DNA of 64,000 nucleotides from Methylophilaceae bacterium (GTDB lineage Bacteria; Pseudomonadota; Gammaproteobacteria; Burkholderiales; Methylophilaceae): contig OZ252007.1 in NCBI GenBank assembly GCA_965247415.1, positions 2,416,416-2,480,415 on the forward strand, read 5' to 3'. The notes below the pieces were generated by a model. That model saw only the letters and a list, made by a program, of their open reading frames with translations, did no database searches and was not told where the DNA came from. The position numbers and the translations under genes are program-made. Shown piece by piece: positions 7,877 through 29,766 of the stretch. Numbering within the stretch: position 1 is the stretch's first letter; the number at the start of each line of letters is the position of its first letter.

Positions 7877-7955
7877 TTAAAATGTGTAAGGAATTTTAAT
7901 TGCCAAAGACTAAACCTTAACTGGCTTTTTATTCTTTTCAATTTTGAGAGAAATT

Positions 7956-8984
7956 ATGATTATTTTACCTAAATCAGACATCATTCCATCTGAAATCACG
8001 CCGCAATCCGTTTTTGAGAATCGCAGAACTTTTATCAAGCAAGCTGGCTTTGGTTTGGCGGCGGGTTTAATCAGCCAGCCACTTTTTGCTGCGAACTTAA
8101 GTTCAGGCACAACCGAAGGCGCAGGGCGTTTAATTGGTAGAGCGAACGCACCAGTCACGGCAAAACCAGCCATTAATGGTAAAAAAATAAGTGGTGTGAC
8201 TAAAACCGAGTACGGTAAAGGTGAAAAGCTGACCGAGTTTAAAGATGTGACAAGCTACAATAATTTTTATGAGTTTGGCACTGATAAAAGCGAACCAGCG
8301 ATTAACGCACGACTCTTCAAAACCAACCCTTGGACGGTGGCAATTGAAGGCGAAGTGAAGCAAAACAAAACGCTTAATCTTGAAGATTTATACAAAAAAT
8401 TTCCGCTTGAAGAACGTATTTATCGCATGCGCTGTGTTGAAGGTTGGTCCATGGTAATTCCGTGGGTTGGATTATCTTTAGCCGCCCTTATTAAATGGGC
8501 CGAACCAACAGGCAATGCTAAATTTGTTGAATTTGTCAGTTATTCAGATCGACAACAAATGCCGGGTACCAATTTACCTATTTTAGATTGGCCTTACACA
8601 GAAGCATTGCGCTTGGATGAAGCCATGAATCCACTCACAATGTTAGCGGTTGGCTTGTATGGCGAGGTGTTGCCCAACCAAAATGGCGCACCTATTCGGC
8701 TAGTTGTGCCGTGGAAATACGGGTTTAAAGGCGCAAAATCAATCGTAAAAATCCGCTTTACAGAAAAAATGCCGCAAACCACTTGGATGAAAGCAGGCCC
8801 AACAGAATATGGTTTTTATGCAAATGTAAACCCTGAGGTTGATCACCCACGTTGGACGCAATCTTCTGAAAAACGGATTGGCAATGGTGTTTTTGCGGGG
8901 CGGATTAAAACTAAAATGTTTAACGGCTATGAAAATGAAGTAGGCCAACTTTATGCGGGGATGAATTTAGAGAAAAATTTCTAA
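7956..8984 (+). CDS. msrP: protein-methionine-sulfoxide reductase catalytic subunit MsrP (YedY), molybdopterin
   Basis: Tat-type leader (ENRRTFIKQAGFGLAAG), a YedY-like body (YNNFYEFG, RMRCVEGWS, PIRLVVPWKYGFK) and msrQ immediately downstream. The start is moved from TTG 7944 to ATG 7956. Confidence 0.9.
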   Translation: MIILPKSDIIPSEITPQSVFENRRTFIKQAGFGLAAGLISQPLFAANLSSGTTEGAGRLIGRANAPVTAKPAINGKKISGVTKTEYGKGEKLTEFKDVTSYNNFYEFGTDKSEPAINARLFKTNPWTVAIEGEVKQNKTLNLEDLYKKFPLEERIYRMRCVEGWSMVIPWVGLSLAALIKWAEPTGNAKFVEFVSYSDRQQMPGTNLPILDWPYTEALRLDEAMNPLTMLAVGLYGEVLPNQNGAPIRLVVPWKYGFKGAKSIVKIRFTEKMPQTTWMKAGPTEYGFYANVNPEVDHPRWTQSSEKRIGNGVFAGRIKTKMFNGYENEVGQLYAGMNLEKNF

Positions 8985-9025: not shown

Positions 9026-9646
9026 ATGTTAAAACAATTAAAAACACTCAACCAAAATCAAGTTAAAAACATAAAAATAGGATTGTTTATTTTATGTTTA
9101 TTACCAATATTACGTTTAGTTTGGCAAGGATTTAACGACAACTTAAGCGCAAACCCAATTGAGTTTATTGAACGCAACACAGGTTATTGGGCATTATTAA
9201 TATTACTCATCACTTTAAGTTTGACACCGCTTAGGCTAACAACCAAAATTATTTGGCCCGTTCAACTCAGGCGGATGCTGGGTCTTTTTATGTTTTTTTA
9301 TGCGGTTTTGCACCTTATCACCTATCTTTTTCTTGATTATAATTTTGAGTGGTCAGATATTTTAAAAGATATTATTAAACATCCCTATGTATTGGTTGGA
9401 TTTTCAGCCTTTATCTTAACCATTCCGCTTGCGGCAACTTCAAACAACGCCATGATTAAAAAACTGGGAACACGTTGGAAAACATTGCACAAATCAGTGT
9501 ATTTGATCGCAATTTTAGGCGTGATTCACTTTTGGTGGTTAGTTAAAAAAGATTTACGCGAACCCATTTTATTTGCAATCATTTTAACGCTACTGTTGCT
9601 CGTTAGAATTTACTTTAAATACAAAGTTGACTCCGTAAAAAAGTAA
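9026..9646 (+). CDS. msrQ: heme-binding membrane subunit MsrQ (YedZ)
   Basis: 206-aa polytopic membrane protein directly after msrP with ferric-reductase-like TM histidines (AVLHLITY, GVIHFWW). Confidence 0.85.
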   Translation: MLKQLKTLNQNQVKNIKIGLFILCLLPILRLVWQGFNDNLSANPIEFIERNTGYWALLILLITLSLTPLRLTTKIIWPVQLRRMLGLFMFFYAVLHLITYLFLDYNFEWSDILKDIIKHPYVLVGFSAFILTIPLAATSNNAMIKKLGTRWKTLHKSVYLIAILGVIHFWWLVKKDLREPILFAIILTLLLLVRIYFKYKVDSVKK

Positions 9647-9717
9647 CTAATTTTTGTAAGTAATTGAGTTGATTAGCGACTTATGAAAACAAATAAATAC
9701 AACTAGGGGAAAATTAA

Positions 9718-10239
9718 ATGCGCTCATCACTCAACTTAAAGCAACTTTGTGCATTTTATTGTCAGATCACGCAGCAACTCTCCAAAATCGCTCATGATGT
9801 TCCAAACTTTGTGTTGCGCTTGATTCTCGCATGGGAGTTTGGGGAAGCTGGATTTGAAAAACTGCATGGCACAAATTGGTTTGCAGACATCGGTTTCCCA
9901 TTTCCATTTAACTTATTGCCAGCTTCCATCAGTTGGAATGTCGCGCTTTCATTTGAAATTATTGGTGCAATTGCTCTGGTTTTAGGCTTTGCAACAAGAT
10001 TTTTTTCAATCGCATTATTTATTTTAACCATTGTTGCAATTGCCGCCGTGCATTGGCCTGACCATTGGACAACGTTCAATGAGCTATTCAAAGGCTATCG
10101 AATTATCGACGAAGAAAATGATGGTTTTGGTAATTACAAGCTACCGCTTCTTTATATGGTAATGTTTTTACCCTTAATTTTTGGTGGAGCAGGCAGGGTA
10201 AGTGTTGACCATTTTTTAAAACGCTTTTTTAAGAATTAA
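9718..10239 (+). CDS. DoxX-family membrane protein
   Basis: 173 aa with 4 predicted TM segments and a DoxX-like N-terminus (VLRLILAWEFGEAGFEKL). It is stand-alone, not next to an MNIO gene. Confidence 0.6.
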   Translation: MRSSLNLKQLCAFYCQITQQLSKIAHDVPNFVLRLILAWEFGEAGFEKLHGTNWFADIGFPFPFNLLPASISWNVALSFEIIGAIALVLGFATRFFSIALFILTIVAIAAVHWPDHWTTFNELFKGYRIIDEENDGFGNYKLPLLYMVMFLPLIFGGAGRVSVDHFLKRFFKN

Positions 10240-15748: not shown

Positions 15749-16222
15749 CTATTTTGTATTTTGCTGAAAGCGACTCAATAACCATGCATCCATTGAATAC
15801 TTACCAACGCCAGAAACTGCAATCATTGCAAATAGGCTGCCCCAAAGGATGTGTTGCGATAAGGCTACGGGCGGAATATCGACCAAGCTGATGACGGCCA
15901 TGCCATTCACAATACATAAACCGATAGCAGAAAACCGACCCAGCAATCCAGCCGTCAGCAAGATTGGTAAAAGTAATTCGCCACCTGTTCCCATCCATGC
16001 CGCCAGCTCGGGCGGGAGTAAAGGCACGTGGTACTCTTCATTAAATAAAAACAAGGTACTGTCCCAATCCCTCACCTTGGTGAGGCCTGATAAGAAGAAA
16101 ATCTTGGCTAGGTAAAGTCTAGCTATCAATAAGCCTAACGATGTGAGCTTTTCAAGTTGCCCTAGCAACATGTGCTGCCAGTGATAAACGCGGATAAATG
16201 ATGGTGTCTGAATTGTTTTCAT
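15749..16222 (-). CDS. DoxX-family membrane protein of the MNIO/bufferin-type operon
   Basis: Its ATG at 16222 overlaps the upstream stop (ATGA). It is a DoxX-like 4-TM protein (LIARLYLAKIFFLSGLTK) and the last gene of the DUF2282-DUF692-DUF2063-DoxX set. Confidence 0.8.
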   Translation of the reverse strand: MKTIQTPSFIRVYHWQHMLLGQLEKLTSLGLLIARLYLAKIFFLSGLTKVRDWDSTLFLFNEEYHVPLLPPELAAWMGTGGELLLPILLTAGLLGRFSAIGLCIVNGMAVISLVDIPPVALSQHILWGSLFAMIAVSGVGKYSMDAWLLSRFQQNTK

Positions 16223-16989
16223 AATGAATCTCCTAATTGATTTGAGGTAAAGCCTATGGCTAGGCATTGTTGTAATGCACTCTGCAACCAAGGTAATGTT
16301 TTTTCGCCCATGTTGGATGCCTCATTAATTGCATGCGCTAAGCTTTTGCCTTGTAATAGGCTTGAAAAAAACAAATACGCTTCGTGAGTAATGATGGAAA
16401 GTGACGCACGCCAATGCTCACGACTAATAAGCAGATACTGCTGCGCACCCTCCGATAAAGGTTGATTGGCCTGATCTAACCATGTTTCGCGATTTTCCTT
16501 AGCGTGATGGGCCTGCCAAATTTCCAAGAGTGGAAAGCGAGAGGCCATGACGGCCACATAATGTGTCGGGTTTAAATGCAAAAATTGCCCGTCTATGGCG
16601 TTAAGTAAGGCGATAGAAGCAACTGTATGTTCTGGTGTTGCAGCGCGTTTCAAGCGATGACAAAACCAATCAAGTTGTGCTACATCTGCCAGAAAAGGCA
16701 TGTCATGCAGAGTCTCTTGTTGTGATAGCCATTTCGCCAGATGCTCACCCCATTCACCCCAATCGCCAGTGTGCAATGGATGCGCATCATAATAAAGTGC
16801 AGCCACAGCTTGCAGCCCTTCTGCACCAAGCAGTTGATCAAGTGTAGGAAAGCTAATGTCGAGCGTACGTGAAGCGCTTGCAAGCAGGTTGCTGCGATAA
16901 ACCAGAATGCCTTTTGGCGGTATTGCGGCAGTTTTGTGTGCAATAGAACGCGCAAATTGTTCTGGTGAACCGTCAATCACGCTGATCAT
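16219..16989 (-). CDS. DUF2063-domain RiPP maturation partner (BufC/HvfC-like)
   Basis: 256 aa from ATG 16989, which forms an ATGA overlap with the MNIO gene stop. It has the DUF2063 hallmark ..LVYRSNLLASASRTLDISFPTLDQLLG. Confidence 0.8.
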   Translation of the reverse strand: MISVIDGSPEQFARSIAHKTAAIPPKGILVYRSNLLASASRTLDISFPTLDQLLGAEGLQAVAALYYDAHPLHTGDWGEWGEHLAKWLSQQETLHDMPFLADVAQLDWFCHRLKRAATPEHTVASIALLNAIDGQFLHLNPTHYVAVMASRFPLLEIWQAHHAKENRETWLDQANQPLSEGAQQYLLISREHWRASLSIITHEAYLFFSSLLQGKSLAHAINEASNMGEKTLPWLQSALQQCLAIGFTSNQLGDSL

Positions 16990-17846
16990 GATGTAAGCAC
17001 CCCTTGCAAGATGCTCCGTGCGATTTGTGCTTCGGCGACCAAGGCTTCCCAGCTTGGCAAATCGTTGTCCCATTCAATCAGCGTGGGTATTGCGCCAAAG
17101 CGTTTTAAAGCCAAACGATAAGCCTGCCAAACGGTTTCAGATACAGGGTGACTGTGATCATCAATCATCAGCTCGCCTTCGGCTGGTGGCGTGCATCCAG
17201 CAAGATGTATTTCACCAACAACGGTTATGGGGATAGACGCTATCCACTGGCTTACATATTCAATTGGGTTTGGGATAGCGCTATTTGTCGCATTCACGAC
17301 CAAATTATTTAAATCCAACAACAGACCACAACCAGTGCGTTGCGTTAGCTCGGTGAGGAATTCTGTTTCAGACATACTACTGCTGCTAAACGCCACATAA
17401 GCAGAAATGTTCTCCACTAACATCTGTCTCTTTAAGCTGTTTTGTAGCGTATCAACGTTTTCACATAACGCGCCTAAACACGCCTCATTAAACGCTAACG
17501 GTAATAAATCGCCAGCATGCTGTAGTTCATCATGGTGCAGAGTCCATCCATGCGCAGCGTGGTCAGATACCAAAATAGGATTCGTGCGTTCCACTAAACG
17601 TTTAAGCTTTTGCACATGCTGTGGCGCTACACCCGCTTTTGAGCCAAGACCTAATGCCGTGGCGTGCAGACTGATGGGAAAACGAGCGGCCGCTTCATCA
17701 AGCACAGCGATGCTCGCACCCCCGTCTGCAAAAAAATTTTCTGCATGCACTTCCACAAAATCCACCAAAACATCAGAGTTAAGCGCAGCTTCATAATGCG
17801 GGCTTCTAAGACCAACGCCTATCATGTGTTGCGTAACGGTTTTCAT
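16986..17846 (-). CDS. DUF692 / MNIO (multinuclear non-heme iron oxidative) enzyme (BufB/HvfB/MbnB-like)
   Basis: 286 aa with a TIM-barrel DUF692 signature at the N-terminus (IGVGLRSPHYEAAL...VDFVEVHAENF), and later SLHATALGLGS, HLAG and LIEWD. Confidence 0.88.
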   Translation of the reverse strand: MKTVTQHMIGVGLRSPHYEAALNSDVLVDFVEVHAENFFADGGASIAVLDEAAARFPISLHATALGLGSKAGVAPQHVQKLKRLVERTNPILVSDHAAHGWTLHHDELQHAGDLLPLAFNEACLGALCENVDTLQNSLKRQMLVENISAYVAFSSSSMSETEFLTELTQRTGCGLLLDLNNLVVNATNSAIPNPIEYVSQWIASIPITVVGEIHLAGCTPPAEGELMIDDHSHPVSETVWQAYRLALKRFGAIPTLIEWDNDLPSWEALVAEAQIARSILQGVLTS

Positions 17847-17871
17847 GGGCTGATACTGACTTCGTTAACGT

Positions 17872-18156
17872 TTAAGATTTTGTAGACTTAAACTTGGCCT
17901 TGGCTTCAGCATCCACCAGACCATTCAGTGATTTGCATGTGCCTTTTGCAACCAGCTTCCACTCGCCAATATCATTGTTTGTTTTGGACTGACCAGCACA
18001 CGAATGCGTACCTGCTAAATTGGCACAGTCGTTTTGCCCAGCCTTGACGATGCCGTAGCATTTTTCTTTGTTTGGGTCTGCGGCAAAACTGGTTGAAGAA
18101 ATGCCATTGGCAACTAAGCCAGCTAAGGCTGTTGCGAGGAATAATTGATGATTCAT
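17872..18156 (-). CDS. DUF2282 family secreted Cys-containing precursor (bufferin BufA1-type)
   Basis: Sec signal peptide (MNHQLFLATALAGLVANGISSTSFA) followed by the DUF2282 core EKCYGIVKAGQNDCANLAGTHSCAGQSKTNNDIGEWKLVAKGTCKSLNG, which has 4 Cys. An SD-like AAAGGA precedes ATG 18156. Confidence 0.85.
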   Translation of the reverse strand: MNHQLFLATALAGLVANGISSTSFAADPNKEKCYGIVKAGQNDCANLAGTHSCAGQSKTNNDIGEWKLVAKGTCKSLNGLVDAEAKAKFKSTKS

Positions 18157-18181
18157 GATAGTTCCTTTCATTGATTAAAAT

Positions 18182-18514: not shown

Positions 18515-18570
18515 TTCAGGCTCCTTAAGCTCTGAGCCATCTCAAATGACAAGATGGCTCAGATGATGTC

Positions 18571-19074
18571 TTACAAGTCTTTAGGGGCTTTGTTACGAAG
18601 TTGTGGCCACTCTGACTCAGCTTTTGTCAAATTACCTGGCACGTCTTCTAACCATTTAGTCTGTACTTCTTTGTTAAGGTTGAGGTAGAGCTTGTTGTCC
18701 ACCACACGCCATGCTTGTGGGTCGCCATCAAGCTTTTTACCTAATGCCACGCCCATTGCACAAAAGCCGCCGTACTGAGGTACAAATTTTTCTGAATTTG
18801 CCTTAAATGCATCTCGGTTTTTTGCATTGGCAAAATGGTAGGTTGCGCCTTTGTAAGATGCGGTGAATTTATCGGAACCTTCTACTGGCGCGGCATTTGT
18901 AAAGTAAGCCACAGGGTCGTAGCCTTTAATCGCTACGCCTTGTTTATCCACATTGAGTGCGCTAGTAGAGGTTTCGTCATAGGCAAAGGCCAATTCAGGC
19001 ACAATGGTGACAAGGGTGCTGGTACTTAAAATCGCCGCTAATAGGAGGTGACGGCTAAAAAATTGGGTTTTCAT
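18571..19074 (-). CDS. secreted YHS-domain protein
   Basis: Signal peptide followed by VAIKGYDPVAYFT...KF.ASYKGATYHFANAKNRDAF..NPEKF.PQYGGFC, typical of YHS-domain proteins. Confidence 0.75.
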   Translation of the reverse strand: MKTQFFSRHLLLAAILSTSTLVTIVPELAFAYDETSTSALNVDKQGVAIKGYDPVAYFTNAAPVEGSDKFTASYKGATYHFANAKNRDAFKANSEKFVPQYGGFCAMGVALGKKLDGDPQAWRVVDNKLYLNLNKEVQTKWLEDVPGNLTKAESEWPQLRNKAPKDL

Positions 19075-19124
19075 AATGTGATCCTTTAAAAATAATGAGT
19101 GTTAATGAATAAAATACGCGTGTC

Positions 19125-19670
19125 TTAAGCCGCCACTTTTAATGCCACTTTTGGAAAATCAATATCTAATTGACTGGCTTTACCAATCATGTTGGTCAGT
19201 ACGTTCATGCCTACATGGGTAATAATCTCCACAATCTCAGCATCGCTGTAGCCAGCTGCACGTGCCTCAAGTAACTCCGCAGTCGTCACATCGCCAGTAT
19301 GTTCTGCAATTGAATTAGCCAGTTTGACGGCCACTGCAGCTTTTGCGTCTTGGCTAGTGCCGGCGCGATTTGCAGAGATTTCATCGCCAGTTAAACCAGC
19401 TTTGCGACCAATAGCGGTATGCGCGGATAAACAGTACTCGCAAGAGTTTTGTTGTGCCAAAGCTAGGGCGATACGTTCGCGGGTTTGTGGGTCTAGGCTG
19501 CCTTCATTCGCTATACCATGCAAACCTAAGAATGCACGTAATGCAGCAGGCGAGTTGGCGAATACTTTTAAAAAGTTAGGCACCATCCCTAGTTGTGATT
19601 GAATAGCATCTAGCAATGCTTTTTGCTCTGAATTTGCAGTTTCATTTGTAACAGTAGTAATACGGCTCAT
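19125..19670 (-). CDS. carboxymuconolactone decarboxylase / AhpD-like family protein
   Basis: 181 aa with the AhpD-type CxxC motif in context (QQNSCEYCLSAH). Confidence 0.8.
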   Translation of the reverse strand: MSRITTVTNETANSEQKALLDAIQSQLGMVPNFLKVFANSPAALRAFLGLHGIANEGSLDPQTRERIALALAQQNSCEYCLSAHTAIGRKAGLTGDEISANRAGTSQDAKAAVAVKLANSIAEHTGDVTTAELLEARAAGYSDAEIVEIITHVGMNVLTNMIGKASQLDIDFPKVALKVAA

Positions 19671-19805
19671 GATTTCATTCCTTTTAAAAATAAGATTAAA
19701 TTAAATAGTCGCTTTATGTTGTGTAGCTGTTTGGTACCGTTTAGCGAGTGAGTGCATTGTTCCATCTTTCATTTAGTTAAAGAATATGCAAAAATAACAA
19801 TAAAC

Positions 19806-19826
19806 TATTTCAAATATTGGAATAAT
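19806..19826 (+). promoter_or_regulatory. 21-nt motif TATTTCAAATATTGGAATAAT (partner of 15714-15734)
   Basis: Lies in the 160-bp divergent region between the AhpD-like gene (start 19670, minus) and the LysR gene (start 19831, plus). Confidence 0.35.
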
Positions 19827-19830
19827 TAAG

Positions 19831-20736
19831 ATGGCGGTAGATCGACTTTTATTGATGACGGTGTTTGTGGCAGTGGCCGAAGAGGAAGGATTTGCTGGAG
19901 CAGCGCGGCGTTTGAATATATCGCCGCCCGCAGTGACTAGAGCAATTGCCACATTAGAGCAACACTTGGGGATTAAACTCTTAAATCGTACAACACGTTA
20001 TGTGCGTGTGACGGAAGCTGGTCAGCGTTATCTGGAAGATGCCAAGCGGGTAATCGCGGCAGCAGATGAAGCCGACGAGTCTGTGGTGGGGCTCAATGCG
20101 GAGCCACGCGGACATATCGTCGTCACAGCGTCTGTGCTTTTCGGGCGTTTATACGTGATGTCAGGCATTGTGGACTATATGAAACGCTATACGCAGATGG
20201 AAGTGTCGGCCTTGTTTGTGGACCGCGTCGTCAATATGTTAGAAGAAGGAGTGGATGTCGCTATCCGTATTGGTGAACTGCCAGACTCAAGCTATCGCGC
20301 CATTCGCGTGGGTTCAGTCAGAAGGGTCATGTGCGCTTCGCCAAATTATTTAGAGCAATATGGCATGCCAAAATCGCCTGAGGAGCTTGCGCAACATCAA
20401 ATTATTCTCGCGAGAGGGCTTAACCCGTCACCTGAGATTCGATTTGTAAAGAATGACGCTCCTCTAACAGTAAAAGTAAAACCCAGACTGATGGTGAGCG
20501 ATAATGATTCGGCGATAGAGGCTGCTGTAGAAGGCATGGGTATTACACGTTTGCTTTCTTATCAAATTGCACCACAACTCGCGGATGGCAGCTTGAAAAT
20601 TATTCTCAGTGAATTCGAGACGAAAGCTGTACCCGTGCATATCCTACATAATGAGGGTAGATATAGTTCGGCAAAAATTAGAACGTTTGTGGATTTGATG
20701 GCTGAGCGATTGCGTGCCGATACATCTTTAAATTAG
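19831..20736 (+). CDS. LysR-family transcriptional regulator
   Basis: N-terminal wHTH (FVAVAEEEGFAGAARRLNISPPAVTRAIATLEQHLGIKLLNRTTR) and a typical ~300-aa length. It is divergent from the minus-strand array. Confidence 0.92.
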   Translation: MAVDRLLLMTVFVAVAEEEGFAGAARRLNISPPAVTRAIATLEQHLGIKLLNRTTRYVRVTEAGQRYLEDAKRVIAAADEADESVVGLNAEPRGHIVVTASVLFGRLYVMSGIVDYMKRYTQMEVSALFVDRVVNMLEEGVDVAIRIGELPDSSYRAIRVGSVRRVMCASPNYLEQYGMPKSPEELAQHQIILARGLNPSPEIRFVKNDAPLTVKVKPRLMVSDNDSAIEAAVEGMGITRLLSYQIAPQLADGSLKIILSEFETKAVPVHILHNEGRYSSAKIRTFVDLMAERLRADTSLN

Positions 20737-20759
20737 TGAAATCCCTTTGGAGAGCTGCT

Positions 20760-21674
20760 ATGTCAAAAATCGCCATCGTTCAACACCCCCCCACTTTTTT
20801 AGATCGCGCTAGCGCATTACAAAGAACGGTTTCCGCGATTAACGAAGCAGCAATCAACGGTGCAAAACTTATTGTATTTCCCGAAGCTTTTATTTCAGGT
20901 TATCCCGCTTGGGTGTGGCGTTTAAGGCCAGGCACAGATCGTGAAGCTCTGACCAAACTTCATGCCATGGCGTTAAGCCAAGCTATCAGTTTGCAAAACG
21001 ATGATTTGCTCCCAGTGCGTGAAGCCGCCAAAGCCCATCAAGTCACCGTTGTGTGTGGAATGAATGAGCGAGATAACGAACGCAGCCAAACAACGCTATA
21101 CAACACGGTGGTAACAATTGGGCCAGATGGAGAAGTGTTAAATAGACACAGAAAGCTCATGCCCACAAATGCTGAGCGAACATTTTGGGGGCTTGGAGAT
21201 GCCAGTGGACTAAAGGTGGTAGAAACACCATGCGGAAGAATTGGTAGCCTGATTTGTTGGGAAAACTACATGCCACTCTCAAGAACCGCTTTGTATGAAC
21301 AAGGGATTGAGATTTACATTGCCCCCACTTACGACAGTGGAGAAAACTGGATATGTAGCTTAAGGCATATTGCCCGCGAAGCTGGATGTTGGGTACTTGG
21401 TGCTGGAAATATTTTTCAGGCAAGCGACATTCCAGATACGCTAACAGCAAAACACATCATGTACCCAAACCCAAAAGAATGGGTCAACCCTGGCGATTCT
21501 GTAGTGATTGCGCCTGATGGAACTATTGTGGCTGGCCCCTTGCATCAAGAACAAGGAATTTTGTATGCCGACATTGAGCTACAATCTGTAGTGACTGCTA
21601 GAAGAAGTCATGACGTTGTTGGACATTCGGCACGCAACGATATTTTCCAGCTAAAAATCACATCAACAGAATAA
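20760..21674 (+). CDS. nitrilase / carbon-nitrogen hydrolase family protein
   Basis: Catalytic-triad contexts are present (FPEAF, ..HRKL.P.., GSLICWENYMP). ATG 20760 is preceded by a GGAGA SD-like sequence. Confidence 0.85.
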   Translation: MSKIAIVQHPPTFLDRASALQRTVSAINEAAINGAKLIVFPEAFISGYPAWVWRLRPGTDREALTKLHAMALSQAISLQNDDLLPVREAAKAHQVTVVCGMNERDNERSQTTLYNTVVTIGPDGEVLNRHRKLMPTNAERTFWGLGDASGLKVVETPCGRIGSLICWENYMPLSRTALYEQGIEIYIAPTYDSGENWICSLRHIAREAGCWVLGAGNIFQASDIPDTLTAKHIMYPNPKEWVNPGDSVVIAPDGTIVAGPLHQEQGILYADIELQSVVTARRSHDVVGHSARNDIFQLKITSTE

Positions 21675-21730
21675 TAGTTTATAAAATTAAATGACCGCTT
21701 TGTCCCTAAGATTTTACATTATAAAAACTC

Positions 21731-21784
21731 TTTGCGAATGACTGCTTATCCCCCCCCTGAAAAGCCTATCCGTATTAAATCCCC
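21731..21784 (+). repeat. ~54-bp repeat, copy A (TTTGCGAATGACTGCTTATCCCCCCCCTGAAAAGCC...ATCCCC)
   Basis: Aligns with 32233-32284 in the same orientation. It shares TTTGCGAATG-CTGCTT-TCCCCCC-CTGAAAAGCC----CGTA-TA-ATCCCC. Confidence 0.6.
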
Positions 21785-22425: not shown

Positions 22426-23125
22426 CTTGACTCCTTGGTACTTAGAGGTGGCTAGGCTTGTGATCTAATAACATTATAGAAGCTCATGTTTCTTTAAATT
22501 TACAATTGTGATTGTAACTTGCATGGCTAGTGTTCTTTGTATTTCTCGGTTTTGTTATTTATCGATCTCCTTAATGAAATATTAATATATAGACTCAGGG
22601 AAATATACTTTTGATTAAAAATGTCATGTTTTTCACCAATTTTGCAGAAGAAACTTGAATGCTAGATCTCCTTAGGCGGCCTTTAAAAGTAAAGTCTGTA
22701 TTTCTAAAGTCAGCCAATAAAAGAAAGGCAATATTTAATATTGTGAAGTATTTTGGCAATGATAATTATTCATTTCAAGTTAATTGCCGATTATCTATTA
22801 GTATATAAAAAGATGATCTCTTCAAGTAAGCAAAGCTGCTTAAGCTCACTGAGTGTTAAACTAAAATGCATGAGAATTTTTGAGAAACTGAAGTAAATTG
22901 TGGCACAACACAAAGCTTTGTATTATTTTTAATGGTACCTATCTCAACGTCTACAATAAAAATGCATGCCAAAGTATTCTTCTGGTTGAACATTGGTAAC
23001 GTATTAATGTCTTTATTTTAAATCCCGGTTTTTTTAACAATAACTGGTCAATTTGATGCGGTAATAATTATTCTATTTTTACAGTTTCTCATCCTTAAAT
23101 TAACGTCACAAGTAATTGTTAAAGA

Positions 23126-23782
23126 ATGCGGAGATCATATTTTATGATGGCAATTTGGCAAATGATCATGAACTTTGATGCGCATTTACCTCTATTAGTC
23201 TCCATGCATGAGTATTTCGTGTACTTTCTGTTGTTTGGATTGGTATTTTTGCAAATTGGTGTGCTGCCTTTTTTCTTCTTACCAAGTAATCCGTTTTTGT
23301 TTGTGTGTGGTGCAGTTTGGGCGAGCTCAGGGCTTAATTTACTTTTGCTATTGTTGGTGTTAATGGCAGCAGCAATGCTCGGCAGTTTAAGTGGGTACAG
23401 ATTAGGTCAAAAGGTTGGTCAGGCTTTTTTTGTGGATTATCTGCAATGGCCGAACCAAGTCACATTGGATAAAACCCGCATTTTTTATGATAAACACGGT
23501 GAAAAGGGTTTTATTGTGTCTTTATTTTTACCAGTAGTTCGCACCGTTTCACCGTTTTTGGCGGGTATCACTAAAATGAACCAGCTCAATTTTATGCGCT
23601 CATCCTGCATTGGGGCAGTGATTTGGGTGCTGGCTTGTGTGTTGCCGGGCTATTTTTTTGGCAATATCCCAGTCATTAAAAATCATTTGGGCTTAATCAC
23701 AATGTTGGGCTTGGCGATGGTGATCATCATTTTTTTGCTCAAAAAACTATTGGATACCGTTGCAAAATCCACCAAAGCTTAA
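23126..23782 (+). CDS. DedA-family membrane protein
   Basis: Polytopic membrane protein with DedA/SNARE-associated features (FLQIGVLPFFFLPSNPFLFVCG, ...RTVSPFLAGITKM). The true start is probably downstream, e.g. MNFDAH at 23168. Confidence 0.7.
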   Translation: MRRSYFMMAIWQMIMNFDAHLPLLVSMHEYFVYFLLFGLVFLQIGVLPFFFLPSNPFLFVCGAVWASSGLNLLLLLLVLMAAAMLGSLSGYRLGQKVGQAFFVDYLQWPNQVTLDKTRIFYDKHGEKGFIVSLFLPVVRTVSPFLAGITKMNQLNFMRSSCIGAVIWVLACVLPGYFFGNIPVIKNHLGLITMLGLAMVIIIFLLKKLLDTVAKSTKA

Positions 23783-23906
23783 ATTTACAATAGCTAAGTA
23801 ACAATAGAGTCAGAGTTAAAGTTACTTCGCAAAACATATGAGGCTGTTATGTCACGCATTTCAGCTATTTAGTTGTTATAAAAATTATGTCAATGGTTAA
23901 ACTAAT

Positions 23907-24683
23907 CTATGCTACCTTACTAATTAACCCAGCCTCCAGCCAGCCAGCAATATATTGTGCCGCAGTTGTCATGGCTTGCTCATCATCCATCTCGACTTCT
24001 AGGCTGGCACAGATTTCTCCGAAGGTTGCCCCCATCATTGCCATATTTAAGGTGATGAATTCCATTTCTACAATTTGCCTAAATTGTGAGTTGAAGTTTT
24101 TACGCCAGATGAGCCATGATTGATAAGTGGCTTCTTGCGCAGGTTTTGGTGGTGTTTCTTCAATTTCTAGCGCTTGCCATATTGGTATTGTGTTCCAGTG
24201 CGTGCGTACTATTTTGATGGTAGGTTGAAATTTAAATCTCAGCATAGCCCAGTTTTCTAGTGGAATTTCAGCGAGGTCTTGCAGGCTTAATTCGGGGACA
24301 TCTTCTTCATCAAATGCTAAAGACAATGCCCATTCAAAATCTGCCATCTCGGCGGCGATTGGGTATTGCGATAGTGTAGCAAGTAAATGCTCATGCATTT
24401 GGCTGCCATACCAACGTAAATTGCGGTAGGTTGAAGGATGTGCCGTTATATACTCTCGGGCAGTTTTATTGAATAGCACGTCACCAAGTAAGGCTTTTAG
24501 CTGTGGGTAGGCAGTTGCAAGCGCTTCGACAATGCGTAATCGATAGGCATTATGGTAAATACTAAGGCGTTGTTTTGCGCCTACTTTTTTGTCGTCGATT
24601 ATGGCTTTAACAAAACCTGTACCTTGCGCATCGTCTAACAAATATGCTTGAAAATCAGCTTGAAGTTTAGCTAGATTGTTCAT
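23907..24683 (-). CDS. DUF2063-domain RiPP maturation partner (second locus)
   Basis: The N-terminus LAKLQADFQAYLLDD and RLSIYHNAYRLRIVEALATAYPQLKALLG are DUF2063 hallmarks. Its start forms a 4-nt ATGA overlap with the MNIO gene stop. Confidence 0.8.
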   Translation of the reverse strand: MNNLAKLQADFQAYLLDDAQGTGFVKAIIDDKKVGAKQRLSIYHNAYRLRIVEALATAYPQLKALLGDVLFNKTAREYITAHPSTYRNLRWYGSQMHEHLLATLSQYPIAAEMADFEWALSLAFDEEDVPELSLQDLAEIPLENWAMLRFKFQPTIKIVRTHWNTIPIWQALEIEETPPKPAQEATYQSWLIWRKNFNSQFRQIVEMEFITLNMAMMGATFGEICASLEVEMDDEQAMTTAAQYIAGWLEAGLISKVA

Positions 24684-25516
24684 GCTGCCACCTTTAGCAC
24701 GCTAGATGATAGGTCACGCGCAATTTGCAACTCTTGCACTAAAACATCTAATTCTGGAATATTATCATCACGCTCTATCATGGTGGAAACCTCGCCCAGT
24801 TTTGAGATTGCGTAACTATATAAATCCCACACATGATCTATCACTGGTGCATCGTGCGTATCAATAATGTAGTCGCCATTATTTTGGTGCCCAGCTAAAT
24901 GAATTTGCTGAACGCGATTTTTTGGAACGCCGTTAATAAACGTTTTAGCATCAAATTGGTGGTTGTAACTGCTTACGTAAATATTGTTTACATCTAGCAG
25001 CAAAAGGCAATCTGCTTGCTCGCTAATAAGCGAGATGAACTCCCATTCGCTCATACTCGAATCTACATAGCTTGCGTAGCTAGAGACGTTTTCCAGCAAA
25101 ATTTGGCGACCTAGGTAATCTTGCACAATCTTTACACGCTCGGCTACATGCTTGGCTGTTTCTTCTGTATATGGTAGTGGTAATAAATCATGTAAGTTTT
25201 GGCCGTGCACGCCTGTCCAGCAAAGGTGGTCAGAAATCCATTGAGGTTGAATTCTATCAGCCAGTTTTTTTAAATCTTTTAAATAAGTTGGATCAATTGG
25301 CGCTGTTGAACCAATTGAGAGCGAAACGCCGTGCATCACAACGGGATAATCGGCACGAATTCTGTCTAAAAAATTGAGAGGCAAGCCACCAGGAATCATA
25401 TAGTTTTCTGATAGCGCTTCGAACCAATCAATATTGGGCTTGGAATCTAAAATTTCGTTGTAATGCTCTGATCGTAAACCAAGTCCAAATCCTAATGTTG
25501 GTGGATTGTTACGCAT
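24680..25516 (-). CDS. DUF692 / MNIO enzyme (second locus)
   Basis: 278 aa with LGFGLGLRSEHYNEIL...IDWFEALSENY, VMHGVSLSIGS, IHLAGH and MIERDD. It is paralogous to 16986-17846. Confidence 0.88.
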   Translation of the reverse strand: MRNNPPTLGFGLGLRSEHYNEILDSKPNIDWFEALSENYMIPGGLPLNFLDRIRADYPVVMHGVSLSIGSTAPIDPTYLKDLKKLADRIQPQWISDHLCWTGVHGQNLHDLLPLPYTEETAKHVAERVKIVQDYLGRQILLENVSSYASYVDSSMSEWEFISLISEQADCLLLLDVNNIYVSSYNHQFDAKTFINGVPKNRVQQIHLAGHQNNGDYIIDTHDAPVIDHVWDLYSYAISKLGEVSTMIERDDNIPELDVLVQELQIARDLSSSVLKVAA

Positions 25517-25611
25517 GTTTATCTCAAATAGTAGGGTATTTTACAAACTCAAAATTTGAGCATGGGTTAGTAGCAATTCCCATGCTCAGCTTTAGCACTA
25601 AACCGTCTAAA

Positions 25612-25962
25612 CTAAATCAAGTGACCGCCTTTTGCATCACAATCAGCACCAGTTAATGCTAAGTGCCCATGACCTTTACATTCGTTTTGACCTTTGCAGG
25701 CATTTGCAGCACTTTTGCAAGAACCTTGACCTTTACAAGCATTTGTAGCTGTTTTACAAGAGTTGTGACCTTTACAAGCATTGCCAGCAGTTTTGCAATC
25801 ACTAGTACCCTTACATGAGTTTACTCCTACACATGCACCTACGGTGCTGTTGGCTGCTGTATTGGTGCCTGCACCAGTTGCTGCACAGCCAGCTAAGATA
25901 AGTGCTGCCGCACCAATTGCTAGCAATGCGCCCCGGCGGCCATTATTTGTATTTATAGACAT
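25612..25962 (-). CDS. Cys/Lys-repeat lipoprotein-type precursor peptide (multi-Cys bufferin/HvfA-like class)
   Basis: 116 aa. The leader has an RR motif (NNGRRGALLAIG) and a lipobox (LILAGC). The body contains four tandem 13-14-residue units (VNSCKGTSDCKTAG / NACKGHNSCKTAT / NACKGQGSCKSAA / NACKGQNECKGHGH), giving 10 Cys after the lipobox Cys. It lies directly upstream of MNIO and DUF2063. Confidence 0.75.
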   Translation of the reverse strand: MSINTNNGRRGALLAIGAAALILAGCAATGAGTNTAANSTVGACVGVNSCKGTSDCKTAGNACKGHNSCKTATNACKGQGSCKSAANACKGQNECKGHGHLALTGADCDAKGGHLI

Positions 25963-26226
25963 GATATTTCCTTTCGAGTTTATTAAAAAAATCCACCATT
26001 TCTAATTAAAACTAACATTTAGAAAAGACAGACGATCTAAATACGTGAATTAACACAAAATAGATTCATCATGTGCCACGCATTACTTTGTCGAAATAAT
26101 CTGCAGACCCTTACAATTCGTTTACTTTTATATTGCTTTCTATTCACCGTAATTTAAATTTACAAAATATGTAAGTAAACATTTTCATTTGCGACTAATG
26201 TTGACATTTAATAATCGGAGTTCATT

Positions 26227-26610
26227 ATGAAAGCTTTATTTAAATCAATATTATTAACATCTAATCTTATAGTCGTTGCGACTGCGTTTGCAGAAACTAC
26301 CGCTTTTACTCAATCAGGTTTTAATCAATTACAACAAGAAGGTAAATCTATACTGGTTGAAATTCATGCGCCATGGTGTCCTACTTGTCGCGCGCAAGCA
26401 CCAGTTATTGATATGTTACTCAAGAAAAAAGAGTATCAATCCATTAACGCTTTACGTGTGGATTTTGATAGCCAAAAAGAGGCTTTAAAGGCATTTAATG
26501 TAAGTAGGCAAAGTACATTAATCGTTTATAAAGGGTCGAAAGAGATGGGTCGCAGTACTGGGGATACTTCACCAGCAAATATCGAGAAGTTAATTCAGAA
26601 AGCAATCTAA
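26227..26610 (+). CDS. secreted thioredoxin-family protein (WCPTC)
   Basis: Signal peptide MKALFKSILLTSNLIVVATAFA and active site HAPWCPTCRAQ. Confidence 0.85.
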   Translation: MKALFKSILLTSNLIVVATAFAETTAFTQSGFNQLQQEGKSILVEIHAPWCPTCRAQAPVIDMLLKKKEYQSINALRVDFDSQKEALKAFNVSRQSTLIVYKGSKEMGRSTGDTSPANIEKLIQKAI

Positions 26611-26626
26611 CAAAAATTAAGGATTT

Positions 26627-27361
26627 GTGATCATGATTGCTCATTTTGGTATTTATGGACTTAGTTTCTTAGCTGGAATACTGTCTATACTATCTCCATG
26701 TGTTTTACCTCTTGTCCCCATTATCGTGGGGGCTGCACTTAATACGCATAAATATGGTCCATATACGCTAGCATTTGGATTGGCAATTTCATTCACTGCA
26801 GTTGGGGTCTTTATTGCCACAATTGGCGCATCAATTGGAATAGATCAAGAAGCGTTTAGAACGATTGCAGCCTTACTTTTAATCATCTTCGGTGTGGTAT
26901 TGCTTTCAGGGACTTTGCAGGAAAGATTTGCTAGTGTTACTGCTGGCATTAGTGGATCTGGAAATAACTTATTAAGTAAAGTATCTGCAAACTCATTATT
27001 TGGTCAATTTATTTTGGGATTGTTATTAGGTATTGTATGGAGTCCATGCGTAGGGCCCGTTTTAGGAGCAACCATCACTCTAGCAAGCCAAGGAACTAAC
27101 TTGCTTCACGTGACAATAGTTATGGCAATATTTGGACTTGGTGCAGGCTTACCATTAATCATATTGGGATCGCTTTCAAAACAAATCATGATGAACCTTA
27201 GAGTCAAGTTATTTGCCGCAGGTAAAATTGGCAAACGTATCCTTGGTGTTATTTTATTGCTTGTTGGATTACTAATAATATCTGGATTCGATAAACAATT
27301 TGAAGCTTTAATTGTAAAAGCATCACCAGATTGGTTAATTTCAATTACTACACGATATTGA
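26627..27361 (+). CDS. CcdA/DsbD-family transmembrane thiol-disulfide electron transporter
   Basis: Polytopic protein with the two conserved Cys-Pro motifs (LSPCVLPLVP and WSPCVGPVLG). The start is GTG 26627 or ATG 26633. Confidence 0.85.
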   Translation: MIMIAHFGIYGLSFLAGILSILSPCVLPLVPIIVGAALNTHKYGPYTLAFGLAISFTAVGVFIATIGASIGIDQEAFRTIAALLLIIFGVVLLSGTLQERFASVTAGISGSGNNLLSKVSANSLFGQFILGLLLGIVWSPCVGPVLGATITLASQGTNLLHVTIVMAIFGLGAGLPLIILGSLSKQIMMNLRVKLFAAGKIGKRILGVILLLVGLLIISGFDKQFEALIVKASPDWLISITTRY

Positions 27362-27566
27362 ATGATTTACTTTGATTTAGATGTGGGCATTCGTACCTTA
27401 GTTATCTTAGAAATCCATATTAGTATTTTTTGACATGCCATTATTGGGTAGCCTAACAAGTCAGTTTGAGTTGCATTGAATCATTAAGCAATATAAATAG
27501 TTGATTTGTCTAGTAAGTTTTGAGTATCTACAACGACTAATGCTTATTTAAATAGGATGCGAAGTT

Positions 27567-28358
27567 ATGTTTCTCAAACGAATTAGTAAACCAACAGTTA
27601 TTTGTACTCTCCTATTACCTTTTATTTTATCAACTTTATCAACAACACTTATTGCTGCAGAATGCTCTTCTAAAAGTGGTGCCACCAGAGTTCCATTGCT
27701 TGAGCTATATACTTCGGAGGGCTGTAGTAGTTGTCCTCCCGCTGACAAGTGGCTGAATAGCATGAAGTTAAGTGCTGATAAAGTAGTGCCTTTGGCTTTT
27801 CATGTAGATTATTGGGACTATATTGGATGGAAAGATAGGTTTTCAAAGCCAGAATTCAGTGCACGTCAACATTCGAATGTGGCGTTTAATAAGTCAAGCT
27901 TTGTTTATACTCCGCAATTTAGTTTTAATGGGCAGGATTTTAGAGGTTGGAATGACTCGCGTTTAAATAATTTTGTAGAACAAAGTTTAAAGCAGCCATC
28001 TCGTGCCAACTTGACGCTTGATGAGATTAATCAAGCAAACGGCGAAATTGTAATAAAAGCAACTGCGCAGGTAATTCAATTAGAGGACTCAAAACATTCT
28101 GAAATTTATATTGCAATTTACGAAAATAAATTAGTGAGCAACGTCAAAGCTGGTGAAAATAATGGTCGTGAACTCAAGCATGATTATGTCGTTCGTGATT
28201 TATTGGGAGCTTACCAACTCAACTTAAAAAGCGAATTCTCAAAAAGTATTACTTTAAAGCCTGAATGGAAGGGTCGAAATGCAGGTGCTGTAATATTTGT
28301 ACAAAACTCTCAAAGTGGTGAAATTCTTCAAAGCCTACAGCTACCTTTTTGTATTTAA
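27567..28358 (+). CDS. secreted DUF1223 protein (CxxC)
   Basis: Signal peptide followed by the family hallmark LLELYTSEGCSSCPPADKWL ... AFHVDYWDYIGWKD. Confidence 0.85.
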   Translation: MFLKRISKPTVICTLLLPFILSTLSTTLIAAECSSKSGATRVPLLELYTSEGCSSCPPADKWLNSMKLSADKVVPLAFHVDYWDYIGWKDRFSKPEFSARQHSNVAFNKSSFVYTPQFSFNGQDFRGWNDSRLNNFVEQSLKQPSRANLTLDEINQANGEIVIKATAQVIQLEDSKHSEIYIAIYENKLVSNVKAGENNGRELKHDYVVRDLLGAYQLNLKSEFSKSITLKPEWKGRNAGAVIFVQNSQSGEILQSLQLPFCI

Positions 28359-28445
28359 TTTAAAAAATTTAGATATAAACAATGCGTTAAAGTAACTTCT
28401 TATCTTTTAAACCATGATTCGAGCCATGGTTGAGGTCAAATATAT

Positions 28446-28470
28446 TAAAAAAGCCCATGTGGGCTTTTTT
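28446..28470 (+). terminator. rho-independent terminator
   Basis: AAAAAAGCCC-ATGT-GGGCTTTTTT lies downstream of the DUF1223 gene, 8 nt before the IS left end. Confidence 0.7.
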
Positions 28471-28531
28471 GATTTGTATGACCCGTCCTGAAATAAGTTG
28501 ACACTTTTTGAATTGAATCAAGGAGAGTCAA

Positions 28532-28933
28532 ATGAGCATTGGGATTAAGAGAACACAACGAGATTACACGCTGTCTTTTAAATTGTCGGTTGTTGAACAA
28601 ATTGAGCATGGAGAGCTGACTTATAAAGAAGCCCAGAAACGCTATGGTATACAGGGTAGATCAACGGTATTAATCTGGTTACGCAAGCACGGTCATCTGG
28701 ATTGGTATAATCTTTCATCATCAGATTTACTGAGTACTGAGATGACTAAAAAACCTTCGTTACCACAAACGCCAGAGCAGCGGATTAAAGCTTTAGAGGC
28801 TGAATTAAAAGACGCTAATCTCAAAGCGCAATTGTTCGAAGCCATGCTGGATGTCATCAAGACTGAGTACGGAGTAAAACTCCCAAAAAAGCCTTTAAGT
28901 GCGTCCTTGCCAAAAAAGAAACTCTTCGAATAA
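28532..28933 (+). CDS. IS3-family transposase OrfA (HTH)
   Basis: 133 aa with an N-terminal HTH (YTLSFKLSVVEQIEHGELTYKEAQKRYGIQGRSTVLIWLRKHG) and a leucine-zipper-like C-terminus. A AAA AAG slippery heptamers lie in phase at 28885-28891 and 28912-28918. Confidence 0.9.
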   Translation: MSIGIKRTQRDYTLSFKLSVVEQIEHGELTYKEAQKRYGIQGRSTVLIWLRKHGHLDWYNLSSSDLLSTEMTKKPSLPQTPEQRIKALEAELKDANLKAQLFEAMLDVIKTEYGVKLPKKPLSASLPKKKLFE

Positions 28934-28956
28934 GTACGGCCAAAGCCTGTCGATTT

Positions 28957-29766
28957 GTGGGGATGAGTCGTCAAGCTTATTATCAGCGCTGTGCCACTGA
29001 AGCCAATGTAGCTAACGAGCACCTTCAAGTGCTAACGTTGGTTCGAGAACAACGCATGTTGCAACCTAGGGTTGGTACGCGCAAGCTGCACTACCTGCTT
29101 AAAAACAGCATGACTGAACGTCACATCAAAATGGGACGTGATGGCTTGTTTAATTTACTTCGCAAAGCACGGCTGCTTGTGTTGCCTAGTAGGTCTTATC
29201 ACAAGACAACCAACAGTCATCATCGCTTTTATAAACACCCCAACTTACTGAAGCCAGGGTTGAATCAAGTCATGCCTAGCAGGCCAGAGGAAGTATGGGT
29301 TGCTGATATTACTTATTTGCCAACGCAAACACAAAACACCTATTTGAGTTTAGTGACGGATGCTTACTCCAGAAAGATCGTGGGTTATCACGTAGATGAA
29401 CATATGCAGACCAGTGCAGTGGGTAGGGCGTTGAAGATGGCAGTTAGTGCGAGACGCTCAACCTCCCCCTTGATTCACCACTCGGATAGAGGAATTCAAT
29501 ATTGTTCATCCGAATATCAATCCATTCATCTGCGTAATCAAATAACGTGTTCGATGACCGATGGTTACGACTGTTATCAGAATGCGCTGGCTGAACGTGT
29601 TAATGGTATATTAAAGAATGAGTTTCTACTGACCAAACCCAAGGATTTGGAAGAAGCAAGAAAGATGGTCAAACAATCCATCAAGATTTACAATGAACTC
29701 AGGCCGCATCTAAGCCTAAAATACAAAACGCCTAATGCAGTGCATCAGGCGTTTGAATCAACCTAA
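28957..29766 (+). CDS. IS3-family transposase OrfB (DDE/rve integrase core), expressed as an OrfAB fusion by -1 frameshift
   Basis: DDE core contexts are present (WVADITYL, HSDRGIQYCS, NALAERVNGILKNE). The -1 frame is open from at least 28885 and reads KKETLRISTAKACRFVGMSRQAYY after the second heptamer. Confidence 0.9.
   Translation: MGMSRQAYYQRCATEANVANEHLQVLTLVREQRMLQPRVGTRKLHYLLKNSMTERHIKMGRDGLFNLLRKARLLVLPSRSYHKTTNSHHRFYKHPNLLKPGLNQVMPSRPEEVWVADITYLPTQTQNTYLSLVTDAYSRKIVGYHVDEHMQTSAVGRALKMAVSARRSTSPLIHHSDRGIQYCSSEYQSIHLRNQITCSMTDGYDCYQNALAERVNGILKNEFLLTKPKDLEEARKMVKQSIKIYNELRPHLSLKYKTPNAVHQAFEST

Follow-up and report, generated by a model that had tools for sequence, protein, structure and literature searches.

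Among the closest described systems is bufferin 2 of Caulobacter vibrioides (buf2ABC, CCNA_02999-03001; Buf2 or BUF_6/12Cys, one of the Cys-Lys captophorins), a locus that "lacks a bufD1-like gene" (PMC11626156). The first and last Cys of this peptide are unmodified; each of its central Cys is converted to a thiooxazole with a loss of 4 Da. Copper is bound by the product, which also gives protection from it (PMC11626156). Six Cys are present in 90% of Buf2 precursors and 12 in the remainder, the latter through duplication of the whole domain, and about 16% are predicted lipoproteins (PMC12452194; the lipoprotein subset also appears in PMC13056109). In Caulobacter, SigF, a sigma factor of the extracytoplasmic function (ECF) type, has the site GTAACC-N16-CGAA and controls buf1, buf2, yedY/msrP and doxX (PMC3511200, PMC11626156). 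The current work concerns a 64,000-nucleotide stretch of DNA from a Methylophilaceae bacterium (contig OZ252007.1, positions 2,416,416 to 2,480,415; hereafter the window), which contains two gene clusters with an MNIO enzyme. The second of these, locus 2, is very probably a Buf2-type bufferin biosynthetic gene cluster of the captophorin, Cys-Lys group, as judged from curated family models. It consists of the following genes:

25612..25962, minus strand: bufA2, precursor lipoprotein of 116 aa (NCBIfam NF050166)
24680..25516, minus strand: bufB2, MNIO (DUF692) bufferin maturase of 278 aa (NCBIfam NF050167)
23907..24683, minus strand: bufC2, DUF2063/HvfC-type partner of 258 aa (Pfam DUF2063)

These open reading frames (ORFs) are located where a first reading of the letters, made without database searches (the sequence-only reading), had placed them, and Pfam and NCBIfam agree with its assignments. 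The precursor scores 105.5 bits against NF050166, "BufA2 family periplasmic bufferin-type metallophore" (cut-off 60), and BufB2 scores 386.1 bits against NF050167, "MNIO family bufferin maturase" (cut-off 310). BufB2 is lower on the other NCBIfam models, HvfB (282.6, below the cut-off of 360), ApyH (93), MbnB (73, below the cut-off of 325) and ChrH (56), and belongs to Pfam MbnB_TglH_ChrH with 373 bits. The MNIO of locus 1 is also best on the BufB model, with 304 bits, and is 37% identical to BufB2. Clade placement of both MNIOs, for which a phylogeny had been suggested, is in effect answered, since BufB scores highest for each (386 and 304 bits), well above HvfB, ApyH, MbnB and ChrH. The N-terminal DUF2063 domain of BufC2 passes the Pfam cut-off with 79.6 bits. 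The bufB2 stop and the bufC2 start overlap as ATGA, read directly in the letters, so that the two genes are translationally coupled, as had been noted.

For comparison, 80 related Buf2 loci were collected (labels L0xx), among them a Methylophilaceae subset of 13 (L001-L013), 11 of which are long enough to reveal the gene after bufC2. The gene order A-B-C without DoxX, found at locus 2, recurs in essentially all 80. The nearest BufB relatives, with 74-89% identity, all come from Methylotenera or other Methylophilaceae, as do the named precursor homologues, and precursor identity among Methylophilaceae is 62-92%. On this sequence evidence, the cluster is an ordinary member of the recently described, already published Buf2 bufferin family. 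As a bufferin cluster it adds little, because family, chemistry, DoxX-less layout and lipoprotein subset were published in 2024-2026 and NCBI maintains curated models.

In BufB2, residues H62, D96/H97, E142, D175/N178, H206, D219/H221 and E248 fall on positions that are conserved in MbnB, TglH and 3BWW, and H62, H97, E142, D175, N178, H206, D219, H221 and E248 are identical in 3BWW, 8HCI, 7DZ9 and 7TCR. From the MbnB and TglH structures, we take these aligned His, Asp, Glu and Asn residues to be the iron ligands. BufB2 contains ERDDN (Asp-Asp) where 3BWW, a Lys-Cys-class enzyme, contains ERDFN (Asp-Phe). Asp-Asp in place of Asp-Phe, that is, an Asp after the catalytic Asp, has been linked to MNIOs with Cys-Lys substrates (PMC13097082).

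The hydrophobic N-region of BufA2 ends at the lipobox LAGC with Cys26, according to a pattern test; close homologues are alike, and a 17-residue linker of Ala, Thr, Asn and Gly comes after it. The 10 core Cys are Cys44 (Cys-Val), Cys50, 56, 63, 69, 76, 82, 89 and 95 (all Cys-Lys), and Cys108 (Cys-Asp). Six scaffold Cys are invariant in alignment A1 of 58 relatives of the precursor. The other four are located within an insert of 26 residues that consists of two 13-aa units, C-K-T-A-x-N-A-C-K-G-x-x-S, and adds four Cys-Lys sites to give a total of eight. A tandem repeat encodes the unit:

25687..25803, minus strand: 39-bp tandem repeat within bufA2, encoding the 13-aa unit (Tandem Repeats Finder, repeat search)

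Tandem Repeats Finder reports a period of 39 bp, 2.9 copies and 79% matches at 25687-25798, in keeping with the repeat-type, Cys-rich precursor that had been proposed. Precursor homologues number 2847 at E <= 1e-3, and Cys were counted on the best 120: 55 have 6 Cys, 3 have 8 and 54 have 10, and 53 of these last 54 contain a lipobox. The 8- and 10-Cys forms arise by gain of units within the domain, unlike the published 12-Cys domain duplication. The 6-, 8- and 10-Cys precursors of Methylophilaceae may serve as a natural dosage series for the thiooxazole and copper-ion load per bufferin. In one Methylotenera locus that shares the divergent trx-ccdA genes described below (L007 7312-7917), two 6-Cys precursor genes are arranged in tandem, one with the lipobox LSGC and the other with QSGF at that position and no lipidation site.

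The resemblance to Caulobacter buf2 extends over the A-B-C order without DoxX, the secreted, Cys-rich precursor in which Cys-Lys motifs lie between an initial and a final Cys of another kind, the BufB-clade MNIO, the DUF2063 partner and a promoter architecture resembling the SigF type (PMC11626156, PMC3511200, PMC13097082). The differences are 10 core Cys against 6, with two extra 13-aa units inside the domain; a lipobox in place of the signal peptidase I site; the physical joining to trx-ccdA-DUF1223 in a 4.5-kb block; and a promoter of the form GTAAGG...CGAC against GTAACC...CGAA. Bufferin 1 (BufA1-BufB1-BufC1-DoxX), present here as locus 1, uses the same enzyme pair for what is presumed to be the same chemistry and role, but with a four-Cys DUF2282 precursor, DoxX, a divergent LysR gene and no promoter motif. 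The oxazolins (HvfABC), together with the fontiphorins (EGKCG, Lys-Cys captophorins), also combine an MNIO and DUF2063 with a secreted, Cys-rich repeat precursor, use thiooxazole chemistry and are connected with copper (PMC13097082). The present locus is unlike them in having Cys-Lys rather than Lys-Cys, in remaining below the HvfB cut-off, and in the Asp-Asp that replaces the Asp-Phe of 3BWW. It is also unlike methanobactin (MbnABC), since the MbnB model is below its cut-off and the partner is DUF2063, not MbnC.

By analogy with the family literature, BufA2 would be synthesised as a 116-aa pre-lipoprotein, and in the cytoplasm the iron enzyme BufB2 and its DUF2063 partner BufC2 would oxidise the Cys of the Cys-Lys motifs to 5-thiooxazoles at eight sites. 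The modified BufA2 would be exported by Sec, its signal peptide cut at the lipobox Cys26 and Cys26 lipidated. Cys44 and Cys108, the first and last core Cys, would then pair as a disulfide in the periplasm, and the membrane-tethered product would sequester excess copper. Eight thiooxazoles and one Cys44-Cys108 disulfide are predicted; the eight inner Cys-Lys sites are expected to be modified and the outer two not, because in Caulobacter Buf2 the central Cys are modified and the first and last are not. Transcription would proceed from an ECF (SigF-like) promoter, which would also drive trx-ccdA, DUF1223, msrPQ and a distant doxX, and the cluster would be one arm of a periplasmic metal and oxidant stress regulon. 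The bufC2B2A2 genes and trx-ccdA-DUF1223 would travel jointly as a 4.5-kb cassette. This block and its surroundings comprise the following features:

23854..28360, unstranded: whole 4.5-kb module bufC2B2A2 / trx-ccdA-DUF1223 (blastn, M. versatilis 301)
26227..26610, plus strand: secreted thioredoxin, active site WCPTC, signal sequence judged by eye (Pfam Thioredoxin, 56.5 bits)
26627..27361, plus strand: CcdA/DsbD-type membrane electron transporter (Pfam DsbD_TM, 64.5 bits)
27567..28358, plus strand: DUF1223, secreted thioredoxin-fold protein with a CSSC (CxxC) motif (Pfam DUF1223, 203 bits)
28434..28483, unstranded: hairpin terminator at the module end (inverted repeat I1; terminator-like site)
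23126..23782, plus strand: DedA/VTT family membrane protein, convergent (Pfam/NCBIfam scan)

The module is collinear with a 4522-bp alignment in Methylotenera versatilis 301 (L081 6289-10794) at 82.6% identity (blastn). It matches the gene table of that genome gene for gene, and blastn finds nothing in common beyond the block. The nucleotide identity of the module, 78-83%, and the names of homologues suggest a Methylotenera-like member of the Methylophilaceae as host. An exact look-up of BufB2 among public assemblies returned no record. In both genomes an insertion sequence (IS) element comes after DUF1223, IS3 at 28532-29766 in the window and IS21 in M. versatilis 301. Because the block is common to two genomes with different flanks and is followed by an IS element in both, the 4.5-kb module is a discrete and probably mobile unit. 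That the divergent thiol-reductant genes noted beside the cluster are linked to it is borne out by the same shared block. The window element, with two transposase ORFs (133 aa and 269 aa), is IS3-type by eye and begins 174 bp past the DUF1223 stop; the IS21-type element of M. versatilis 301, with a Mu-transposase C-terminal domain and IstB, occupies the equivalent position.

The DedA gene is convergent at 23126-23782, as the sequence-only reading had it; as a part of the system it was rejected, having a counterpart in 0 of the 80 loci and lying outside the block shared with M. versatilis. Most Methylophilaceae loci occupy a housekeeping setting, mreB-gatCAB...M48 peptidase / buf2 / DUF1223-MFS-metW, from which the window differs. 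In L003, L005, L006, L009, L011 and L012 the M48 family peptidase gene is the one immediately upstream of bufA2 and has the same orientation; the window module has no such gene. On one Methylotenera contig from a metagenome-assembled genome (JAYVLK010000001.1; L005 and L010), two inverted copies of gatAB...buf2-DUF1223-MFS-metW are found about 30 kb apart; the arrangement is either a genuine segmental duplication or an artefact of binning or assembly.

A conserved promoter motif connects the two halves of the module with one another and with genes elsewhere in the window:

26090..26115, minus strand: promoter motif TGTAAGG-N15-CGAC upstream of bufA2, position weight matrix (PWM) score 19.8, leader of about 125 nt
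26170..26195, plus strand: promoter motif upstream of the divergent trx-ccdA, PWM 23.0, conserved in L007 and M. versatilis L081
27512..27537, plus strand: promoter motif variant AGTAAG-N16-CGACTAA directly upstream of DUF1223, PWM 20.5
7885..7910, plus strand: promoter motif upstream of msrP, the best-scoring copy, PWM 26.2
9655..9680, plus strand: promoter motif upstream of a stand-alone doxX, PWM 17.7
7944..8984, plus strand: msrP (Pfam Oxidored_molyb)
9026..9646, plus strand: msrQ (Pfam Ferric_reduct)
9718..10239, plus strand: stand-alone doxX (Pfam DoxX, 61.6 bits)

The PWM was built from other loci only and then run on the window, with 20 shuffles as the null; 19 of the 20 peaked at 14.0 or less and one reached 17.0, so that the doxX site, at 17.7, is just above the highest shuffle and marginal. 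An exact-pattern search of the window for TGTAAG-N14-18-CGAC returned 3 occurrences against 0.31 expected, located upstream of bufA2, trx and doxX. The upstream regions of bufA2 in Methylophilaceae have TGTAAGG-N15-CGACTAA in common, conserved in all such loci. Ahead of DUF1223 the motif was called in 9 of the 11 loci carrying the gene, and in L012 and L013 the ORF was called too long, with the site at its 5' end. Loci without buf2 have the motif ahead of trx-ccdA, DUF1223, msrB-msrA and a gene for cytochrome b. Upstream of bufA2, the form GTAAG...CGAC occurs in other Betaproteobacteria and GTAAC...CGAA in some Alphaproteobacteria; in total, 21 of 67 loci contain a match, against a background of 0.045 per region. 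A further PWM match in the window, at 56055-56016 on the minus strand (17.9), was treated as chance: it is placed inside a LuxR-type gene (55424-56275), reads GTGAG for CGAC and has no downstream gene on its strand.

Because the motif resembles the Caulobacter SigF site GTAACC-N16-CGAA, we infer a SigF-like ECF regulon that would comprise buf2, trx-ccdA, DUF1223, msrPQ and doxX. The SigF/NrsF (ECF) regulons of Caulobacter, Bradyrhizobium and Azospira are similar in containing buf operons, yedY/msrP and doxX under a GTAA -35 and a CGA -10 element (PMC3511200, PMC4436054). In Methylotenera, TGTAAG-N16-CGACTAA ties buf2 to msrPQ, msrAB, doxX, trx-ccdA and DUF1223, and the SigF-type regulon picture would thereby reach beyond Alphaproteobacteria and Azospira. 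The sequence-only reading had pointed out the lack of DoxX; none is present in the locus, and this is the normal Buf2 layout rather than something peculiar (PMC11626156). The stand-alone doxX at 9718-10239, which shares the motif and lies 14 kb from the locus, is a candidate for a trans-encoded DoxX of the regulon. The msrP, msrQ and doxX genes (7885-10239) are located beside housekeeping genes, outside the accessory region of the window. In L087 the motif stands ahead of an EF-hand protein and a cytochrome b gene (11588-12159), and in L089 ahead of an msrB-msrA-cytochrome b-molybdopterin oxidoreductase operon (154-3379). Fusions of EF-hand_5 domains with Buf_EGKC peptides are known.

Two RNA regions of the cluster were also examined, one of which contains a distinct element:

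25552..25593, minus strand: stem-loop of 10 bp followed by a U-rich stretch, between bufA2 and bufB2 (inverted repeat I6)

The bufA2-bufB2 intergenic region folds with -24.1 kcal/mol (z = -3.1), and a strong hairpin of different sequence occupies the same position in all 14 related loci examined. Such a hairpin would partially terminate transcription or stabilise the transcript, and in this way favour precursor mRNA over enzyme mRNA. The bufA2 leader (25963-26089, minus strand, about 125 nt) is conserved in L002, L005-L008 and L081. It contains a short frame resembling an upstream ORF, MMNLFCVNSRI, in the window and in M. versatilis, and a hairpin CUACC...GGUAG with a loop of variable length, after which comes a U-run, some 30 nt ahead of the ribosome-binding site. 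RNAalifold places two hairpins with two covarying pairs in the leader, and the single-sequence z-score is -0.5; the leader may be an attenuator, and a structured RNA is not established. An Rfam scan of 23000-28700 returned one sub-threshold small-RNA match only, at the terminator.

Several points weigh against a copper-binding Buf2 bufferin under SigF-like control. BufA2 has 10 Cys, whereas the published counts are 6 and 12. From the 58-sequence alignment, AlphaFold2 gave a poor model of BufA2, unusable for a fold comparison, with a mean predicted local distance difference test score of 48.6, which leaves the disulfide pairing and the BufA2 fold without structural support. The C-terminal domain of BufC2, which would resemble a recognition element of peptides that are ribosomally synthesised and modified after translation (RiPPs), is covered only by a sub-threshold full-length HvfC alignment (NCBIfam HvfC, residues 36-255, 40.7 bits against a cut-off of 142, E = 2.4e-10), and a sequence search of the PDB with BufC2 gave no match. 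Motif similarity is the single ground for the SigF assignment, with GTAAGG/CGAC here against GTAACC/CGAA in Caulobacter. Unlike the described SigF/NrsF regulons, the window contains no sigma or anti-sigma gene, neither sigF nor nrsF, and trx-ccdA and DUF1223 are not reported members there. Moreover, a motif shared with Msr genes fits oxidant defence as well as it fits a role in copper.

This last point leads to an alternative function, in which the product, instead of being a copper metallophore, would chiefly scavenge oxidants or reactive chlorine species in the periplasm as a sacrificial target, comparable to MrpX of the Azospira SigF regulon, with its thiol-bearing thiooxazoles first oxidised and afterwards re-reduced via Trx-CcdA-DUF1223. 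The same motif precedes msrP/msrQ in the window and the msrB-msrA-cytb-molybdopterin oxidoreductase-DUF1223 genes of L089/L090. In Azospira, SigF/NrsF responds specifically to reactive chlorine species and controls yedYZ-mrpX (PMC4436054), and Buf1 can form a labile extra S-S bond between modified residues (PMC11626156). The sole experimental data for the family, however, are copper induction, binding and protection (PMC11626156, PMC13097082), and the NCBIfam model calls BufA2 a metallophore. We regard a mainly scavenging role as improbable, and the two roles are not mutually exclusive. Less credence still is given to a new precursor class within an unusual mobile accretion of metallophore RiPPs, the framing taken from the sequence-only reading, which we consider very improbable. 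Its observation that the precursor is unrelated to DUF2282 is supported: hhalign of the precursor against BufA1 of the window gives a probability of 0.5%, with no detectable sequence relation, and neither the precursor nor any of the 58 relatives matches DUF2282. Loci 1 (12808-21755) and 2 (23854-28360) are also separate cassettes, each found elsewhere beside mobile-element genes, and only 2 of the 80 loci (L019 and L054) have a Buf1 cluster no more than 8 kb from Buf2, so that the closeness of two MNIO systems is indeed uncommon. The novelty of the class does not hold, since the precursor passes a curated NCBI BufA2 equivalog model and has more than 2800 homologues, and since publications already cover the class, the absence of DoxX and the lipoprotein subset (PMC11626156, PMC12452194, PMC13056109). 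Multiple bufferin loci in one genome are likewise documented, one Legionella genome having seven MNIO genes (PMC12452194), so that the proximity has precedents. That the small ORF is no substrate, and that the MNIO has a target different from the neighbouring peptide, is the least credible of all and is given almost no weight: no evidence supporting it was found, the precursor-MNIO-DUF2063 order is kept in essentially all 80 loci, the precursor is well conserved within Methylophilaceae, and the MNIO is best on the BufB model.

The Buf2 copper bufferin being preferred, the role of the thiol-reductant genes beside it must be considered. DUF1223 has a homologue in PDB 2AXO (E = 3e-22; the two CxxC motifs align) and is classed as a thioredoxin-like fold (PMC3091736); secreted Trx, CcdA and DUF1223 could form a relay that carries reducing power to the periplasm. 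A dedicated bufferin accessory, which would set or repair the disulfide, maintain the thiols of the thiooxazoles in reduced form, or transfer or reduce copper, is possible and yet doubtful. In its favour, the six genes stay together as one block in two genomes whose flanks differ, the two sides have a promoter motif in common, and DUF1223 is found beside buf2 in 11 of the 11 Methylophilaceae loci long enough, in varying position, convergent after bufA2B2C2. CcdA/DsbD_TM genes recur near buf2 in Legionella tunisiensis (L028), Methylobacterium (L051) and Bradyrhizobium (L071). On the other side, close DUF1223 homologues occur without buf2, in L087 (86% identical, with only trx-ccdA / DUF1223) and in L089/L090 (71% identical, after msr genes); about 70 of the 80 Buf2 loci have neither gene nearby; and BufB and BufC alone suffice for Buf1 modification in vitro (PMC11626156). 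DUF1223 as a dedicated tailoring enzyme was downgraded because it occurs without buf2. A bolder version, in which the 4.5-kb block is a self-contained, IS-mobilised defence cassette whose membrane-anchored, repeat-expanded bufferin with eight thiooxazoles is serviced by its own electron relay CcdA -> Trx -> DUF1223, the last of which would maintain the thiooxazole thiols or the disulfide in their active redox state, is judged rather unlikely. If it were true, each bufferin molecule would offer potentially several copper sites, DUF1223 would obtain its first function, and bufferin biology would gain a redox-recycling step. The best reading is that trx-ccdA-DUF1223 are co-regulated partners of the cluster in periplasmic stress defence, and DUF1223, a family of known structure and unknown function, would gain a concrete setting in periplasmic metal or oxidant stress. 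Thioredoxin, DsbD, DUF1223 and DedA are all absent from the main text of the MNIO landscape paper, in which additional conserved genes are called rare. In the Legionella tunisiensis locus (L028 10226-11635), a DsbD_TM-Redoxin-Thioredoxin_10 fusion is located about 0.6 kb downstream of bufC2, and umuD/umuC-like genes are found upstream of bufA2.

Locus 1, the other MNIO cluster of the window, contains the following genes, all assigned on the basis of Pfam/NCBIfam:

17872..18171: DUF2282 precursor (BufA1)
16986..17846: MNIO (BufB1)
16219..17073: DUF2063 protein (BufC1)
15749..16291: DoxX

By these family matches locus 1 is a Buf1 cluster, because its MNIO is best on BufB and its precursor is of the DUF2282 type. 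It belongs to an 8.9-kb cassette (12808-21755) with genes for nitrilase, LysR / CMD, YHS, Trx, BufA1, BufB1, BufC1, DoxX, a PNPOx-FNR-ferredoxin fusion, GST and DUF1348, which is 84-90% identical to the metagenome contigs L084 and L086. There the cassette is set among integrase, anti-restriction, umuDC-like and type I restriction genes, with no buf2 nearby. The locus-1 MNIO has few close relatives, and beyond those the nearest are from marine Gammaproteobacteria, with 51-58% identity. The GC content is 46-47% at locus 1 against about 35-42% at locus 2, and neither the pattern search nor the PWM detected TGTAAG...CGAC at locus 1. The accessory region of 12-30 kb, from a tRNA-Ser (12020-12109) to the IS3 element, is a mosaic of separately mobile cassettes in which locus 1 is independent of locus 2; in this form the proposed modular accretion holds.

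The tRNA-Ser (TGA anticodon) marks the junction of housekeeping genes (ligA, PNP, def) with the accessory region. An ORF overlapping it, at 12045-12284 on the minus strand, was considered as an integrase remnant, which is unproven: it ends in a sequence resembling a tyrosine recombinase C-terminus, it has no Pfam match, and the L084 integrase matches nothing in the window. Farther along, at 33017-54395, there are two consecutive clusters with the appearance of duplicated type II secretion or type IV pilus-like systems, each with a T2SSE-type ATPase (36739-38391; 46429-48144) and the first also with a secretin (40776-42698).

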